IMG/VR virus record: IMGVR_UViG_2695420685_000018
Direction: 5' to 3' (one strand)
Source: a virus
Lineage: Duplodnaviria > Heunggongvirae > Uroviricota > Caudoviricetes
Length of the DNA: 6,554 nt
Shown: piece after piece, positions 1 through 6,330 of the stretch
Layout: each line of letters begins with the position of its first letter
How positions within the stretch are numbered: the first letter of the stretch is position 1
Notes under the pieces: generated by a model
The model's database searches: none
Seen by the model: only the letters and a program-made list of their open reading frames with translations
Told to the model about the DNA's origin: nothing
Translations under genes and position numbers: made by a program

Positions 1-1625
1 ACCAGTTGCTGCGCCTCTGTCTGCGAAAAAATCTCCGGATCATCAGGAAAACGGATGGCATACGACGTGGCTTCATCCGCAGGCGTGGGATCGGCTTTCA
101 TACGGGCATAGAGAATTTCTTTTGCGGTGTCCGTCCCCACTTCGCACAGATACACGCCCCGCTGATTGCGGGTTTTTGGCATGGTGATCACCTGCTTGCC
201 ATAAACAGATGCACCTTTTACCGGCAGCACCCGGAAAACACCGTGTTTTTTTGACCTCTGATAGACAATTTCGCCATCGATCCCCCCGGTGTCCCAGCAG
301 ACACGGGAAATGGTCATTTCGGTTCCGTCTGCATGGCGGTATTTTTTGTTGATCGCCACATCCACACGTAACAGCGTCTCTTCCTCATCGGGACGCCCCA
401 TAATGATGATTTTATCCACCAGAAAGGCTTCCTCTCCCGGAGCCCATCCCCAGACATACATCTCAAAACGGTTTCGCTGCGAGTCAATGCCCGCCGTCAG
501 ATAAACCACCCGGGAAGGCACCGCCGCCGTGTAACGCACAACCTTATCCATCAGCACCTGGTGATCGAGTTTTTCGCCCACGGCCTCTTCCCAGGTCTCG
601 CCCAGCGTGGTGTTCACAAAGGTTTTCAGGCCGTTGGGATCTTTCAGTGCATCCAGCCAGTCATAGACAATCTGTACCCAGGTGGTGAACGGACTGTACG
701 CCGTCCAGATATGGAATGTGATGGAGCGCGGCGGCGGAATTTCATTATCCGCGGCGCTGAAAAATGTCAGACCGTCACGAGTCCACATGCCCGTGTTTTC
801 ACAGATCCACCGCCCGTTACTCTGGTCAAGCTCAGACTGATGGATCACACAGCCATGATGCTCACAAAGGTAGAAAACACTTTCTGGCTTATTCTTCTCC
901 CACTTAAGACCGAAAGGCGAGGCATCATCGCCAAATTTCAGATACTGCTCCTCCCCACAGTGCGGACAGGGCACATAAAAACGCATGAAGTGTGCCGACT
1001 CGTTAGCGGCTTTTTCGATCTGGCAGGAGCCTTTGATTTTAGGCGTCGAGCCGCGAATGGATTTTGGCCATACAGAGCCCTCAATACGTTTATCCCCCAG
1101 CAGGGTTGGCGAACCCTCTTTTTCAACATCCGGTTCGAACGAGGAAAGCTCGTCATAACAACCCACACCGGAGGAAAAACGCTTCAGGGTGAGCGTATTA
1201 TCGCGGTGTTTTCTTCCGAACCATGGAGCCAGCTCCAGCAATGCAGGAACATCCCTTATCGTTGGCTCAACATGAGATTTCATAAAATCTTCAGCAGCTG
1301 AGTCCGTGGGCTGAAAAAGAAGGCTGTTGCGTGATTTATGCTCAATAAAATAAGCCTCCACTCCCAGCAACATCTTTGTATAACCAACACGGGCAGATTT
1401 AATCAGGTTAACCGTGCGAATCAGATCGTTGCCCATACAGTTCATGATGCCAACCTGAAACGGCAGTGTTTCCCACCGCCCCGGGGTATAAGACGACTCT
1501 TTAGGAAGGTAATAATGTTTATTGGCCCACTGAACTGTCGTCAGTGGAACAGGAATAATGAGAGATAAAAGCCCTGTAGCTATCGCACCGGCTGCATTAG
1601 CTGCCTTCTGTGCGTCTGAAATCAT
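1..1625 (-). CDS. A: Terminase large subunit (lambda gpA-like), N-terminal ~541 codons; C-terminal part lies beyond the left window edge
   Basis: Seen in sequence: ATG at 1625-1623 on the minus strand, frame open to position 1 (no complete minus-strand ORF is reported here, consistent with run-off). Hand translation gives [62 protein letters not shown]... at the start and ...[19 protein letters not shown] at the window edge, same frame. Established knowledge (recalled, not searched): collinear with lambda gpA (…[20 protein letters not shown]…, …HFPNNPDIFDLTEAQQL…). Start overlaps the 3' end of nu1 as in lambda. The middle of the gene was not verified codon by codon. Confidence 0.9.
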
Positions 1626-2145
1626 CGATCCACCCGCCCACGTTTTCACCGGCCTTAGCTGCAACATTGGAGGCTTTCGCGATTTCAGTTTTCACCACAT
1701 CAAGGTGTGATGGTGAAATGTCCGGATATTTACGCTGTAATGTCAACGGCACACGCACAAGTATCCCCGAAATCTCCTGTGCCACACGTTGCAGAATGAA
1801 GGTAAACAGTTCAGTTTCCAGCACCACTCCGTCTTCACGGGCATTTTTCAGTTCCTGCGCATCTGCCTGCGCTTTTGTGAGCCGGTAGCGTTCATAGTCA
1901 ATGGTGCCGGGTTGTAAATCTGACTCCGCTGCCGCACGCAAATCGGCCAGTTCTTTGCGGAGCTTTTCGTTTTCGATATCAGTTTCCCTCTGCGCATACC
2001 ACTGAATTGCCATGGCAGTATCAAATACAGATTCAATGCCCTTACTGCCTTTGGAGACGCAAGGGAGCCCCTGAGACTGCCAGCGTTCAATCGTCCGCGG
2101 GTCCACGTTAAAAATTTCGGCAAGCCTCTTTTTATTAACCTTCAT
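1597..2145 (-). CDS. nu1: Terminase small subunit (lambda Nu1-like), 182 aa
   Basis: ORF track 1597..2169 (-). From the internal ATG at 2145 the product [28 protein letters not shown]...[18 protein letters not shown]...[28 protein letters not shown]... closely parallels lambda Nu1 (MEVNKKQLADIFGASIRTIQNWQEQGMP...) from memory. The 8 upstream codons begin with a non-ATG codon and have no lambda counterpart. The start lies about 187 bp downstream of cosN, matching lambda geometry. Confidence 0.9.
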
Positions 2146-2360
2146 AGAACAACCCATTATCAAATACAAGGCCCGACATGAAAACGCCAGAAAAAGGCAT
2201 TTTCGGACACTTTCATGTCGGACATTTATGAATGCAATATTAAAAAAAACAAAAAGTTATATTCGAGAAGTACCGACACGATTTTCCCTGAAAAATTTTC
2301 ATAAATAGTGAAAAACCGCGAGGTCGCCGCCCCGTAACGATCTGGATCACCGGAAAGGAC
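2146..2360 (-). other. cos site region (cosQ-like flank, cosN, cosB-like repeats) of a lambda-type packaging system
   Basis: Seen in sequence: the minus strand reads ...GGTGATCCAGATCGTTACG|GGGCGGCGACCT|CGCGGTTTTTCACTATTTATGAAAATTTTTCAGGG..., nearly identical to the lambda genome end/start junction as I recall it (…GGTGATCCGACAGGTTACG + GGGCGGCGACCTCGCGGGTTTTCGCTATTTATGAAAATTTTCCGG…). Between cosN and the nu1 start are repeated CCGACA/TGTCGG motifs, including an 11-bp inverted pair (plus ccgacatgaaa 2173-2183 and tttcatgtcgg 2211-2221), plausible Nu1-binding R elements, plus an A-tract at about 2241-2256. Confidence 0.8.
2321..2332 (-). other. cosN 12-nt cohesive-end sequence
   Basis: Plus strand aggtcgccgccc at 2321-2332; its complement reads 5'-GGGCGGCGACCT-3', identical to the lambda left cohesive end (established knowledge). 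Confidence 0.85.
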
Positions 2361-2488
2361 CCGCCAACGACTTTCGCGTGCAGGCATTAAAAATTTTGCA
2401 GTTCCATGCCTAGTTGAAACCTCGATTTCTATAACATCCAATTTTGTAAATTTAGATATAGCTCAACTTTTCCCAATGTTTTCAAGTG

Positions 2489-2494
2489 TATAAA
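2489..2494 (+). promoter_or_regulatory. Candidate sigma70 -10 element (TATAAA) for the plus-strand 355-aa gene; no convincing -35
   Basis: Seen in sequence: TATAAA about 60 nt upstream of the ATG at 2556 in an AT-rich tract. The gene is antisense to the phage late operon and so needs its own promoter somewhere in 2400-2555. Weak call. Confidence 0.25.
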
Positions 2495-2544
2495 AACAAT
2501 TGGCGTTACGCCATAACACTATACTTAGGATAAGTAAAGATTTT

Positions 2545-2550
2545 AAGGAG
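2545..2550 (+). promoter_or_regulatory. Shine-Dalgarno AAGGAG for the 355-aa gene
   Basis: Seen in sequence: aaggag at 2545-2550, 5 nt upstream of the ATG at 2556. Confidence 0.7.
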
Positions 2551-2555
2551 TTTTA

Positions 2556-3623
2556 ATGAGTCAACATCAATATTATCCACAGCTGAAATGGAAGCCTGCT
2601 GAATATGAATCTCTGATGCTTTTAGATCAAACTACGCTCTCTGGTTTTACTCCGATCATTACCATTCCAGACATAGACTGGGATTATGAAAACGAATGCT
2701 ACAAGAAGAGTTTGAGTTCTTACTTATCTGACTTCGGTATTAACCTTGCGGCATCCTGGAAAGCCAATCGTCCTGTTTTGCTGGATGTTAAATATTTAGA
2801 TAAACATGGTTCGAGCCGCCATCATCCTCTAGATATGTGTATCCAAGATGCTAGAGTAAATGGTAAGGAAATTATCCCTGTTGTTTCTCCCGCATATTCA
2901 ACAAACTATATACATGCTGTTCAACGCAACTTAATCAATGGGCTCGCTATATCTATCACCCCCCAGACATGGCACCAATTCACAAGTCTGGTTAACCACT
3001 TAAATATTCATCCTAGTTTAATTGATGTAATCATTGATTTTGGAGATATTCAAAACGCAACTGATAGTTTAAAACAACAAGCATTAAGCATGGTCAACAC
3101 ATTATCAGGCCAAGCTCCGTGGAGAAACTTGATTTTATCTTCAACCGCATACCCGGCATCACAGGCAGGGATACCGCAACATCAAGTTCATCATATTCCG
3201 CGCCATGAATACGATCTTTGGATGTACGTAGTACAGAATTTTAGCAATGGAAGAACGCCAAGTTTTAGTGATTATCCCACCGCTAGCTCTACCATTACGA
3301 GCGTAGACCCACGCTTCATGTCTCAGTATGTCTCAGTGAGATATTCGAACGATACCTCATGGATCTTTGTAAAAGGTACCGCAGTTAAAGGAAATGGATG
3401 GGGCCAAACTAAAAACTTATGTACTACCCTTGTTAGTTCGCCAGAGTATCAAGTCTTTGGCTCCAAATTTAGTTGGGGGGATGATTACATTTACCAAAGA
3501 TCATTAGGCGCTAACAAATCTGGCGGCTCTAAAGAATGGCGTAAAGTTGCACATACGCACCATATTACGTTAGTCGTGAGACAGCTTTATTGGTTGGCGC
3601 AGACTCAGCCTGCCAAGCCTTAA
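2556..3623 (+). CDS. Hypothetical protein, 355 aa, no confident family assignment; first gene of the cos-proximal AT-rich insert
   Basis: ORF track 2556..3623 (+). ATG preceded by a strong SD, long ORF in a low-GC segment, no predicted transmembrane stretch or signal peptide by eye. Unverified impression only: resembles proteins annotated as 'beta family' or 'sce7725-like'. Requires a profile search. Confidence 0.8.
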   Translation: MSQHQYYPQLKWKPAEYESLMLLDQTTLSGFTPIITIPDIDWDYENECYKKSLSSYLSDFGINLAASWKANRPVLLDVKYLDKHGSSRHHPLDMCIQDARVNGKEIIPVVSPAYSTNYIHAVQRNLINGLAISITPQTWHQFTSLVNHLNIHPSLIDVIIDFGDIQNATDSLKQQALSMVNTLSGQAPWRNLILSSTAYPASQAGIPQHQVHHIPRHEYDLWMYVVQNFSNGRTPSFSDYPTASSTITSVDPRFMSQYVSVRYSNDTSWIFVKGTAVKGNGWGQTKNLCTTLVSSPEYQVFGSKFSWGDDYIYQRSLGANKSGGSKEWRKVAHTHHITLVVRQLYWLAQTQPAKP

Positions 3624-4185
3624 CTTTCCAGCCTACGCGTTTCTTTAAGGCTGTTCTGACTTCAGGCCTGAGATTCGCTATTGGAATATTTTCCGCAATA
3701 ATATTCCATAACTCAAATCGGGGCTTGCTTTTGATTCCTTTGGAATAGCCCCATCGTTCAAGTACGTCGATACATTCATCTTTCCAAAGCAATTGAGCGA
3801 GCATCAATGTGTCATGGTTTCGATTAAGCTTTTCTCCACGCATGTGCTTTATAAGAATGGCGCCTTTTGGCCCAACAGAAACCGTTTTAACGCCCCACCA
3901 ACCTGGGATTAACTTTAATGCTCCCTCAAGGTGTTTCTCAGCTACGACAAGAGTAACCTTGTCCATTACAGAAGAATAATGCTTGATTTGAAGAGGCAAA
4001 CGCTCCAAAGAGTCATATTCACTTTTGAGCTCGTACCCGTGTATAACACCATTTATTACAGCAATGTCTGCTCTACTGGCGCCAAGGGATATGGAAAATT
4101 CATCGACCACAAGGCAGTCTGGATCTAAATGCGATTCTTTCAAAAGCTTATGATGCACCGCGAACCTAACATCTTGATCTTTCAT
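3565..4185 (-). CDS. Hypothetical protein, 206 aa, with an N-terminal PD-(D/E)xK-like nuclease motif (putative nuclease); second gene of the insert
   Basis: ORF track 3565..4185 (-). ATG at 4185-4183 preceded by AAGGAG. Residues ...VVDEF(28-30)...RADIAV(38-43)...GYELKS(50-55) fit the hydrophobic-strand-D / hydrophobic-strand-E-x-K arrangement of PD-(D/E)xK nucleases (inference from motif spacing). Unverified impression: resembles 'sce7726-like' or MmcB-like proteins. Confidence 0.75.
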   Translation of the reverse strand: MKDQDVRFAVHHKLLKESHLDPDCLVVDEFSISLGASRADIAVINGVIHGYELKSEYDSLERLPLQIKHYSSVMDKVTLVVAEKHLEGALKLIPGWWGVKTVSVGPKGAILIKHMRGEKLNRNHDTLMLAQLLWKDECIDVLERWGYSKGIKSKPRFELWNIIAENIPIANLRPEVRTALKKRVGWKVKAWQAESAPTNKAVSRLT

Positions 4186-4190
4186 GACTT

Positions 4191-4196
4191 CTCCTT
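4191..4196 (-). promoter_or_regulatory. Shine-Dalgarno AAGGAG for the 206-aa gene
   Basis: Seen in sequence: plus ctcctt at 4191-4196 is AAGGAG on the minus strand, 5 nt upstream of the ATG at 4185. Confidence 0.7.
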
Positions 4197-4213
4197 ACTC
4201 CCTCCGTTATTGA

Positions 4214-4219
4214 ATTATA
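4214..4219 (-). promoter_or_regulatory. Candidate sigma70 -10 hexamer (TATAAT, perfect consensus) for the 206-aa gene
   Basis: Seen in sequence: plus attata at 4214-4219 is TATAAT on the minus strand, about 29 nt upstream of the ATG. The -35 position is occupied by a tandem direct repeat rather than a TTGACA-like hexamer. Confidence 0.45.
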
Positions 4220-4222
4220 GCG

Positions 4223-4242
4223 CACTGCATTTTACTGCATTT
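4223..4242. repeat. Tandem 10-bp direct repeat (cactgcattt / tactgcattt) overlapping the -35 region of the 206-aa gene promoter; candidate operator
   Basis: Seen in sequence: 4223-4232 cactgcattt and 4233-4242 tactgcattt, 9 of 10 identical, head to tail, immediately upstream of the TATAAT element on the minus strand. Confidence 0.6.
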
Positions 4243-4535
4243 GAGAGATTTGACCACTTCAATCACAAAATGCTTATCTGCAGCAACAAGATTCATAGCC
4301 ATACGACTATGGTGATTACCTTTTGTCTGGAAAACTGACCATTCCACGAAGATCAGATAGGTCTATAGAATCTTGGTTTGTCATAGCGTTCGTCTTACTT
4401 TGAGATGAACCTTTGCTGCATAGGAGATCAGCCCGTCAAGGCTCACCAGCACTAACTGACTACTCAAAGGCTCATTCCAAAGGGTTTGGTTCGACGTGGT
4501 TGAGTGCGCTGCGGTGCGCGGTGAAATACCTGTAC

Positions 4536-4566
4536 AAAAATGCCCCGCATCTGCGAGGCATTTTCC
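4536..4566 (-). terminator. Intrinsic terminator-like hairpin downstream of Rz, with some bidirectional potential
   Basis: Seen in sequence: plus aaaaaTGCCCCGCATCTGCGAGGCAtttt. On the minus-strand RNA this is a 7-bp GC-rich stem (GCCUCGC/GCGGGGC, one G-U pair), 4-nt loop, followed by AUUUUU. It lies about 40 nt past the Rz stop. On the plus strand the stem carries a C-A mismatch and a shorter U tract. Confidence 0.55.
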
Positions 4567-4601
4567 TGAAAGTCACGTATTAAATTTCAGTGAAATTAAA
4601 A

Positions 4602-5060
4602 TTATTTTAAGCACTGCGTCCTGATGTACTCCTGCAGGTAGTTGACCTGAGCGGTTATCTTGTCGATTCCACTTCGGAGACGGTAATAATTGAGTTCAGC
4701 ATCTGCTGTAAGTCTTGGGCTTTCTCCATCGCCCATGCTGCTGGCTCCGGTCGTTGACTTTGCACAGGTGGCGGCGACTTGCAGGCGCTTACGCCCAGCA
4801 GAAACATCAGCACGAAGACTTTCGATAGTCGCGTTAGCATCAGCAAGCTCCTTTGTGTATCTGGCGTCGAGTTCTGCTACATCACGCTGACGCATCTGCA
4901 TGTCAGTAATTACCACGTTCGCCAGCTTCAGTTCTCTGGCATTTTTGTCGCGCTGGGCTTTGTAGGTAATGGCGTTATCGCGGTAATGATTAACAGCCCA
5001 TGACAGGCAGACGATGGTGCAGATAACCAGAGTATAAATAATCGCTGCGACTCTGCTCAC
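4602..5060 (-). CDS. Rz: Rz, inner-membrane spanin subunit (lambda Rz-like)
   Basis: ORF track 4602..5075 (-). From the GTG at 5060 the product [48 protein letters not shown]... is near-identical to lambda Rz ([48 protein letters not shown]...) from memory. The GTG start overlaps the endolysin TGA stop (GTGA). The upstream in-frame codon at 5075 is TTG and has no lambda counterpart. Confidence 0.88.
4655..4840 (-). CDS. Rz1: Rz1, outer-membrane lipoprotein spanin subunit, embedded in the +1 frame of Rz
   Basis: ORF track 4655..4846 (-). From the ATG at 4840: [36 protein letters not shown]..., i.e. a signal peptide with lipobox V-S-A-C followed by a Pro-rich segment, entirely inside Rz in another frame. 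This is the defining Rz1 architecture (established knowledge). Confidence 0.85.
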
Positions 5061-5590
5061 TGATCTATCCCCCAACAGGCTAATGCGCTTTCCTGGTCAC
5101 GACGAATAACCTGTCCATAGCAGTTATTTGAACGTATGCGGCAATCGCGCCCACCATCTTTTATCCACCAGCGAATCGCCTCGCATGCGCCCTTACGATC
5201 ACCGGCATTCAGCCGCTTATAAAACGTCGACGGGAAACACTTACCGGGGCCAATGTTATAGGGACAGAATGACGCTATACCCGCTTTCTGTGGTTCGGTC
5301 AGTGGTACTTTAATATTGCGCTCCACCCATGCCAGCGCCTTATCACGTTCAATAGCGTTAACCTGGTCGCATTTTTCCTTCGACAGCTTCATTCCCGGTA
5401 TGACGGGCTTACCATCCACCATTGTGGCACCACGACAGATGGTCCATATACCGGAACCATCGCGGTATGCCGTAGTGTGGTTACCCTCTTTTTCATCCAG
5501 AAACTGGTCAAGTATTTGAGGAGCAGACGCGCCTGCAGCAATCAGCGCCAGAACAGCAGCTGACAGGCCGTATTTGATTTTTGCGCTCAT
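5057..5590 (-). CDS. R: SAR endolysin (T4-lysozyme-type muramidase, phage 21 R / DLP12 RrrD-like), 177 aa
   Basis: ORF track 5057..5590 (-). N-terminal Gly/Ala-rich weakly hydrophobic segment [16 protein letters not shown] (signal-arrest-release type) followed by the catalytic spacing E35-x8-D44-x5-T50 ([16 protein letters not shown]), as in P21 R and T4 lysozyme E11/D20/T26 (established knowledge). Confidence 0.9.
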
Positions 5591-5645
5591 GGATATTTAT
5601 CAGGATGCTACCAATGAAAGATACTGGAAAGCCAACTGCAAAAAG

Positions 5646-5960
5646 CTAACAACCCGTAATCGAGTTATCAGAACTGTTAATTTTTATGGTATACCGCGCC
5701 TCTGAACAGGGGCGCGTTTCTGGCAACAGCTCGTCCCCTTCACATAACCCGGCAGCAACATCCATGAAGACCTGTCTGATGCTCCTTCTGGCTGCTGCCT
5801 CATAAAACTCCAGCGCGGCACCTTCAACACGGTCCAGCGAGATGTCCAGGTCAAAAATTTCACCGTCAAAGCGTTTTTTGTCCCGTAACGCTAAAGTTAC
5901 CGTAACTTTATTCTCAAAATTGCGGATCCCTTTCACAATCAGTTCATAGTTTTGAGTCAT
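5646..5960 (-). CDS. Small hydrophilic protein of unknown function, 104 aa, YdfR-like (DUF1327-type) gene between holin and endolysin
   Basis: ORF track 5646..5960 (-). ATG 4 nt after the holin stop with a GGGGAGAG SD-like tract. No transmembrane segment. Position and size match YdfR of the E. coli K-12 Qin prophage, which sits between essQ and rrrQ (recalled, not searched). Confidence 0.7.
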   Translation of the reverse strand: MTQNYELIVKGIRNFENKVTVTLALRDKKRFDGEIFDLDISLDRVEGAALEFYEAAARRSIRQVFMDVAAGLCEGDELLPETRPCSEARYTIKINSSDNSITGC

Positions 5961-5964
5961 TGAA

Positions 5965-6180
5965 TTACTCTCCCCGTGCAGCCTTACGACGGTCCTCTCT
6001 GATTTTGAAATACAGGTTAGTCAGATATGTCAGCAGCCCAAACAGCAGACTCCCCAGCACGCCTATTGCCGCCCACTGAGACGGGGAAACCCTGTCCAGC
6101 AACTGCAGGAACCAGTAGCCCGTTCCCACCGCTGACGTGGTGTATGACACACCTGTTGTGATTTTTTCCATCTGGTACAT
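5965..6180 (-). CDS. S: Class II holin / pinholin (phage 21 S21-like), 71 aa, with dual-start motif
   Basis: ORF track 5965..6258 (-), trimmed to the ATG at 6180: [71 protein letters not shown]. This parallels S21 (…[65 protein letters not shown]) from memory. Two transmembrane segments; Met1 and Met4 give a dual start; GGAG lies upstream of the ATG. The 26-codon upstream extension in the ORF track begins with a non-ATG codon and runs through the terminator hairpin. Confidence 0.9.
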
Positions 6181-6212
6181 ACCCCGTCTCCCGTTATCCG
6201 GAAGCTGACAAC

Positions 6213-6246
6213 AATAAAAAAAGCCACCAGTTAAGTACTGATGGCT
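6213..6246 (-). terminator. Intrinsic terminator (tR'-like position) between the upstream ORF and the holin
   Basis: Seen in sequence: minus-strand RNA 5'-AGCCAUCAG-UACUUAA-CUGGUGGCU-UUUUUUAUUG, a 9-bp stem (one G-U pair), 7-nt loop and U tract, ending about 35 nt upstream of the holin ATG. Confidence 0.55.
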
Positions 6247-6330
6247 CTGATAACTCATGCAGGCATCTCAGACGACCCACTGACACTACCGGTGAGTTTA
6301 ACGATACCTTCCATTTGACTGGCTCACTTT

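Follow-up and report, generated by a model that had tools for sequence, protein, structure and literature searches.

A predicted PD-(D/E)xK nuclease of the sce7726/P4-cII family and its convergent beta partner: a candidate two-gene anti-phage cassette in an Escherichia coli prophage

The stretch of DNA analyzed here, referred to below as the window, comprises 6,554 nucleotides (nt) of the viral record IMGVR_UViG_2695420685_000018 (Caudoviricetes) and, read on the minus strand, corresponds to the late region of a phage-21-like lambdoid Escherichia coli prophage. It encodes a 206-amino-acid (aa) protein that is, close to certainly, a member of the cII family of satellite P4 with the fold of PD-(D/E)xK nucleases. 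The gene is convergent with one encoding a homologue of P4 beta, and the most likely reading, held at somewhat better than an even chance, is that the two form a beta/cII defense cassette devoid of gop, in which homology and gene linkage would cast the nuclease as the effector. The family and a related defense system are already known; the literature searched mentions neither the two-gene form without gop, nor the assignment of a nuclease, nor the universality of the convergent pairing.

As proposed, the 206-aa protein would be a metal-dependent nuclease in which E29, D40, E52, and K54 form the catalytic site, D58, R62, and Q66xxxY70 complete it, and a C-terminal helical domain binds substrate or partner. 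It would constitute one half of an old mobile cassette, the other half being the predicted triosephosphate isomerase (TIM)-barrel protein beta, and carriage of this cassette between Rz and cos would endow the lysogen with an abortive-infection-type anti-phage module. Beta would restrain the nuclease until an infecting phage supplied a cue, which beta would sense or transduce; phage and/or host nucleic acid would then be cleaved by the nuclease.

Fold and motif of the 206-aa protein

The gene and the parts of its product on which the assignment depends are as follows.

3565..4185, minus strand: gene for the 206-aa sce7726-family/P4-cII-like protein (open reading frame [ORF] and family profile matches)
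4024..4104, minus strand: residues 28-54, the flagged segment with E29, D40, and E52-x-K54, a putative metal-binding catalytic tetrad (codons exact)
3976..4014, minus strand: residues 58-70, with D58, R62, Q66, and Y70 (QxxxY), forming the loop and helix after strand 3
3625..3822, minus strand: C-terminal helical domain, residues ~122-187, with invariant W134, E137, and R183

The initial annotation had proposed that E29, D40, and E52-L-K54 are spaced as in PD-(D/E)xK nucleases, and the translation (LVVD28-E29-F...R38-A-D40-IAV...G50-Y-E52-L-K54-S) places these residues exactly as claimed, in codons 4104..4024. They are also conserved among homologues. All four positions are invariant in an alignment of 48 homologues that share 39-83% identity with the protein (48/48), and when 340 distinct homologues are aligned to the family profile, E29 is found in 336 (the other four being gaps) and D40 in 338. 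E52 and K54 are each present in 340/340, as are D58, R62, and Q66, with the proviso that some 80 of the sequences were retrieved by a DNA scan that used HGYE[LI]KSxxD as its seed and hence carry E52, K54, and D58 by construction, the other ~260 being unseeded. Y70 (328/340) forms with Q66 a QxxxY motif, which may be comparable to the one on the helix after the ExK strand in RecB/Cas4-type nucleases. The tetrad is kept in the most distant members examined (24-32% identity overall), namely P4 cII (24%), p30 of Myxococcus phage Mx4 (32%), and gp0580 of Bacillus phage Edson (27%). The motif is not a chance pattern, and D58, R62, Q66, and Y70 are probably part of the active site or of substrate binding. 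Conservation extends into the C-terminal domain (E137 in 338/340, R183 in 339/340), which is possibly a nucleic-acid- or partner-binding module. ORFs on the plus strand that cover the motif bases (3931..4128 and 4025..4153) were rejected as being without support.

The protein consists of a PD-(D/E)xK nuclease domain (residues ~1-120), the C-terminal helical domain, and a disordered tail. An AlphaFold2 model derived from the 48-sequence alignment (predicted local distance difference test [pLDDT] 92.6, predicted template modeling score [pTM] 0.86) comprises a helix (3-14), three strands (25-32, 37-44, and 48-54), a helix (63-73), a strand (76-82), a helix (83-92), and two further strands, followed by four helices spanning residues 126-182 (126-130, 135-144, 156-166, and 169-182) and the tail. 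E29 lies on strand 1, D40 on strand 2, and E52 and K54 on strand 3 of an alpha-beta-beta-beta-alpha-beta core. This is the core of the PD-(D/E)xK superfamily, with its acidic strand-2 residue and (D/E)xK on strand 3, and it supplies in the model the restriction-endonuclease-like fold that the initial annotation had anticipated. The invariance of the four tetrad positions, D58, R62, and Q66 is the pattern expected of an active site, and because the tetrad is invariant the protein is likely to be an active nuclease.

Structure comparison returned PDB entry 3dnx as the best match, followed by YaeQ, PaqCI, SfsA, BstEII, FAN1, NgoMIV, Cap4, and Vsr; in Foldseek, 3dnx was the sole significant match (E 1.8e-4, probability 1.00). 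We take 3dnx to be SPO1766, the structural representative of the DUF1052/MmcB-like family, whose Pfam entry is presumably PF06319, and one source names a homologue "DNA repair protein MmcB-like." SPO1766 differs from the window protein in its length of 146 aa and in having no C-terminal helical domain. The similarity is structural only: the PF06319 profile matched 0 of the 48 homologues at E<=5, Pfam scans found no family for these homologues or, at E<=1, for the 206-aa protein itself, and PDB searches with the single sequence and with a profile returned nothing above noise (TAF1 and PTK2B at E > 0.1). Of the two routes to the fold suggested in the initial annotation, the structure search thus succeeded and the sequence profile searches found no link.

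Family membership is well defined. NCBIfam model NF033832, "sce7726 family protein," scores 184.1 bits (cut-off 70) over model positions 1-182 of 184; the PADLOC "cll" model (3.8e-31) and phrog_984 also match; and the RefSeq entry WP_000654791.1, "sce7726 family protein," is identical to the window protein. P4 cII carries the same RefSeq name and aligns end to end by BLASTP at 27% identity (E 3e-19). A word-indexed search recovered 314 homologues, precomputed Pfam assignments place PF26915 on 120/120 homologues among the matches listed, and a HMMER scan of 1.84 billion cluster representatives returned 5,669 clusters at E<=1e-3 and 1,394 at E<=1e-30. Four members (P0148, P0178, P0222, and P0239; 326-395 aa) are annotated with long extensions; no Pfam domains were found in the extensions of ten long members. 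Such extensions probably arise from miscalled starts or from read-through antisense to beta, and not from genuine fusions. The literature search found no paper on a biochemical function for cII or the sce7726 family, the term "sce7726" turning up only in genome-annotation lists.

Convergent pairing with beta

The second gene of the cassette, its junction with the nuclease gene, and the candidate initiation signals of both genes are listed below.

2556..3623, plus strand: gene for the 355-aa Beta_protein, a homologue of P4 beta and PD-lambda-2C with a predicted TIM barrel (Pfam, PADLOC, and sequence homology)
3565..3623, shared by both strands: 59-nt segment in which the convergent genes overlap at their 3' ends (coordinates)
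2545..2550, plus strand: Shine-Dalgarno sequence AAGGAG, 5 nt before the beta ATG (sequence reading)
4191..4196, minus strand: Shine-Dalgarno sequence AAGGAG, 5 nt before the ATG (4185..4183) of the cII-like gene (sequence reading)
4229..4256, minus strand: candidate sigma-70 promoter of the cII-like gene, TGGTCA-16-TAAAAT (weak consensus match)

The pairing was surveyed in 80 genomic loci, spanning Proteobacteria, Firmicutes, Myxococcota, phyla of the Candidate Phyla Radiation (CPR), Elusimicrobiota, Bacteroidota, and others, to which were added P4, phage Rac-SA53, a Gordonia phage, and one E. coli chromosome that bears an identical copy of the window cassette. In every informative locus, that is, every locus with enough downstream DNA (n=81), a beta gene faces the nuclease gene in convergent orientation (81/81), and in 78 of the 81 the 3' ends overlap, by 11-158 nt. 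The arrangement is seen in Proteobacteria, Firmicutes, Myxococcota, CPR, Elusimicrobiota, and actinophages, and when the search was begun from beta, all viral contigs with enough DNA proved to carry a cII-like gene as well. Divergence in one protein tracks divergence in the other (Mantel r 0.72, 0/1000 permutations), with beta evolving faster than the nuclease (mean identity 29% vs 42%).

In the window, the overlap corresponds to the tail of the cII-like protein, which is disordered (pLDDT 51-57) and not conserved, together with the last 19 codons and stop of beta, whereas close relatives of the nuclease are 190 aa long and overlap beta by 11 nt. What is conserved, for these reasons, is a convergent junction that is tight and lacks a terminator, and not a particular overlap sequence. 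Since the overlapping 3' ends in 78/81 loci leave no space for a terminator, the two messenger RNAs must overlap in antisense.

The candidate sigma-70 promoter of the cII-like gene is weak, because the promoter region scanned held three sigma-70-like sites where 6.4 were expected by chance. A 46-aa ORF also lies upstream of the nuclease gene (4207..4347, minus strand); like the sigma-70-like site at 4229..4256 it has no RefSeq annotation, and nothing supports either as real.

Beta itself belongs to Pfam PF14350, Beta_protein (8e-56), and is 22% identical to P4 beta (E 3e-7), which is likewise 355 aa; by PADLOC it scores better with PD-Lambda-2_C (4e-32) than with P4 "beta" (3.5e-10). A TIM barrel is predicted with high confidence, and together with conserved enzyme-like residues (Y6, E16, D77, D157, D161, R190, R216, D239, Y240, Y263, D309, and H336) this suggests that beta may be a TIM-barrel enzyme. 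Comparison of the barrel identified no specific enzyme family, no NCBIfam models matched the beta proteins, and a literature search for "PF14350" found nothing; a lead under "Beta family protein" was an unrelated paper on the 2TM-beta effector (PanDA).

The prophage slot

Read on the minus strand, the window runs from holin, a YdfR-family gene, and lysozyme (5057..6258) through Rz/Rz1, an insert of ~2.4 kilobases, and cos to the small and then the large terminase. The lysis genes are an ordinary lambdoid cassette.

5057..5590, minus strand: lysozyme, with a hydrophobic N-terminus resembling the signal-anchor (SAR) type
4602..5075, minus strand: Rz, with an embedded Rz1-like ORF
4655..4846, minus strand: Rz1-like ORF, with a hydrophobic N-terminus ending in cysteine (LGVSAC)
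2319..2334, minus strand: cosN-type sequence containing GGGCGGCGACCT, ~220 base pairs (bp) from the beta start
1597..2169: small terminase

The two-gene insert coincides with an island of low guanine-plus-cytosine (GC) content (2250..4500; 0.35-0.44 vs ~0.50 in the flanks). The flanks match the cos/terminase region of phage 21 at 98%, and in the related phages PhiR63_2 and PhiR57_1, whose flanks are 97% identical, the same slot is filled by Bor and hypothetical genes. The sequence at 2319..2334 is, we presume, the lambda cohesive end, and because this lambda-type sequence lies there the candidate defense cassette abuts cos, as in the P4 hotspot; a terminator-like match at the same place (CGGGGCGGCGACCTCG, 2334..2319) was rejected as a terminator since it contains the cos cohesive-end sequence. 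As a moron between Rz and cos, the cassette occupies a variable slot beside cos, paralleling the P4 hotspot, and the exact cassette, 100% conserved, is found in 126 of 5,426 complete E. coli genomes (~2%). Of the "uncharacterised partner in a moron slot" described in the initial annotation, the moron context therefore holds, and the partner is the Pfam Beta_protein homologous to P4 beta.

The cII-like gene is co-oriented with the late lysis-terminase operon (3565..6258, minus strand), to which beta is antisense. Because the orientation is shared, late read-through on induction might raise nuclease messenger RNA and at the same time make antisense RNA to beta. In E. coli CUVET17-972, an IS2 (L129, 506..1734) lies between cos and the beta start and leaves both genes intact; the insertion may separate beta from its promoter and was set aside as uninformative.

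Candidate defense role, alternatives, and significance

The closest described system is P4 gop-beta-cII (gop_beta_cll in DefenseFinder/PADLOC), which adjoins cos in the P4 defense hotspot and shields E. coli from both lambda and P1 (Rousset et al. 2022, PMC9122126). There, gop is toxic without beta, the two have been interpreted as a toxin-antitoxin pair, and the locus to which cII belongs is non-essential and defensive (PMC9122126); expression of orf184, a phage accessory gene, sets off the cell-killing activity of the system (bioRxiv 10.1101/2023.04.06.535777). The window resembles P4 in the full-length cII homology with the same E/D/ExK/D/R/Q residues, and in the convergence of the nuclease gene with that of a 355-aa Beta_protein in a non-essential hotspot adjoining cos. 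It differs in that gop, the reported toxin and a small membrane protein encoded upstream of beta in P4, is missing; in that the nuclease has 206 aa vs 264 aa in P4 cII, without the ~60-residue C-terminal extension of the latter; in the 59-nt 3' overlap, where P4 has a 27-nt gap with an annotated terminator; and in its host element, a lambdoid phage-21-like prophage rather than a satellite, the proteins being 22-27% identical to those of P4. Of the three components of gop-beta-cII, the cII-like gene and the adjacent convergent beta are thus present at the window and the upstream gop is absent.

The second related system, PD-lambda-2, consists of a HigB-like A, a helix-turn-helix (HTH)-M78 peptidase B, and a beta-like C, of which C is needed for defense and not for toxin neutralization (Vassallo et al. 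2022, PMC9519451). A role for beta as a sensor or adaptor would fit this requirement. The window beta is C-like only, with no A or B ORFs in the window, and the published three-gene definition of PD-lambda-2 excludes the nuclease. Among the loci surveyed, however, a PD-lambda-2B-like HTH-M78 peptidase lies upstream of beta in 17 of 81, ten of which also have a HigB-like PD-lambda-2A:

L037 (5001..8122), L048, L057, L059, L061, L064, L067-L069, L071, L072, L076-L079, L081, and L083: PD-lambda-2-type loci

PD-lambda-2-type loci therefore frequently include, as a fourth gene, that of the convergent nuclease, and the simplest reading is that beta and the nuclease are the core, to which gop or HigB/peptidase are optional additions. 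Any sensing would have to reside in a separate protein, beta, or in the small helical domain, whereas the PD-(D/E)xK defense effector nucleases Can2/Card1, Cap4, and those with a NucS/EndoMS-type core carry their sensor domains (CARF/SAVED or other) in the same polypeptide. The suggestion of the initial annotation that the cassette serves in defense is reasonable.

Several points weigh against an effector role in defense. Nuclease activity or a solved structure has been found for no family member in the literature and PDB searches, and the predicted convergence of the four tetrad side chains is read from their strand positions in the model. A prophage of Xenorhabdus koppenhoeferi (L010, 4414..6810) has an intact cII-like gene without beta; a Ser/Thr-kinase-like fragment and a PP2C-like ORF occupy the place of beta, and the slot directly follows Rz/Rz1, as in the window. 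No other locus with enough downstream DNA lacks beta. Distant sce7726-like genes that keep the tetrad, in Bacillus phage Edson (L127, 2435..3028) and Myxococcus phage Mx4 (L128, 2492..3061), lie in co-directional operons with no beta neighbor. Matching phage records also come from Staphylococcus (241), other Bacillus, and Lactobacillus. The occurrence of distant members in lytic or large phages points to a broader clade of stand-alone phage nucleases. In view of the Xenorhabdus prophage and the distant lytic-phage members, the unpartnered nuclease is not always lethal. The name given to P4 cII, moreover, was historically that of a regulatory gene. The window lacks the toxin presumed for the validated system, no suitable ORF for gop being present upstream of beta or anywhere in the slot (with P4 gop as the phmmer query, P4 itself was the sole match among the window and the 84 loci), and defense by the gop-less pair is what we infer from its relatives. 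Finally, the cloned PD-lambda-2 fragment (ECOR42) defended with <400 bp beyond its three genes; so little DNA cannot hold the complete nuclease gene, and systems containing beta can accordingly work without it.

The best placed of the alternatives, itself improbable, is that the protein serves the phage, either in DNA repair or processing in the manner of MmcB or in the control of lysogeny, as the name cII would imply. It draws on the match to 3dnx and the MmcB-like name given to a homologue, on the beta-less relatives in early operons of lytic phages, and on the orientation of the gene with the late operon beside cos. Yet the cassette is a low-GC insert that is dispensable, being absent from related phages with 97%-identical flanks; the beta-linked clade resides mostly in bacterial chromosomes of many phyla with no fixed phage position; and the homologous P4 locus is non-essential and defensive.

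A selfish addiction module of the toxin-antitoxin type, stabilizing the prophage or the cassette with no part in phage defense, is less probable still. The interpretation of gop and beta as a toxin-antitoxin pair and the high mobility of the cassette across phyla, inherited as a unit, would suit such a module, but type II toxin-antitoxin operons are co-transcribed adjacent genes, and here the two genes converge and each has its own Shine-Dalgarno sequence and promoter; anti-phage phenotypes have been measured for the relatives in P4 and PD-lambda-2, and the nuclease occurs without beta. Equally hard to credit is a restriction-modification-like pair, in which beta would modify DNA, RNA, or a metabolite and the nuclease would cut unmodified nucleic acid. 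The convergent layout does resemble many type II restriction-modification pairs, but the likeness of beta to DpdA and TGT, pursued as a lead to DNA modification and rejected, is no stronger than its generic matches to dozens of unrelated TIM barrels; P4 beta counteracts a membrane protein, gop; PD-lambda-2C is needed for defense where there is no full nuclease gene; and the Xenorhabdus prophage keeps an intact nuclease without beta. A catalytically dead scaffold that binds DNA or protein is very improbable, for although inactive PD-(D/E)xK domains exist and no measured activity was found in this family, the tetrad, D58, R62, and Q66 do not vary among 340 sequences, even at 24% identity.

The gop-less defense cassette with the nuclease as its effector can be extended to a bolder reading, which we hold only tentatively and consider clearly less probable, although ahead of the alternatives above. 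Under it, the beta/sce7726 pair would be an autonomous and widespread two-gene immune core, of which gop-beta-cII and PD-lambda-2 are elaborations that add toxins to beta. In the same proposal, beta might act catalytically, by making, destroying, or sensing a small molecule or nucleic-acid modification, and the convergent terminator-less layout with its antisense transcripts might be part of the control circuit.

P4 gop-beta-cII and PD-lambda-2 are two published anti-phage systems that are still without a mechanism, and the present assignment provides cII with a testable chemistry, that of a PD-(D/E)xK nuclease with named catalytic residues. The nuclease family of the core pair amounts to ~5,700 sequence clusters, from E. 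coli prophages to CPR bacteria and actinophages, and the rules of defense finders would probably miss the pair when gop is absent. Should the pair prove able to defend without gop, many prophage and genomic loci would have to be reannotated, and the role of the convergent overlap would become a tractable regulatory question.
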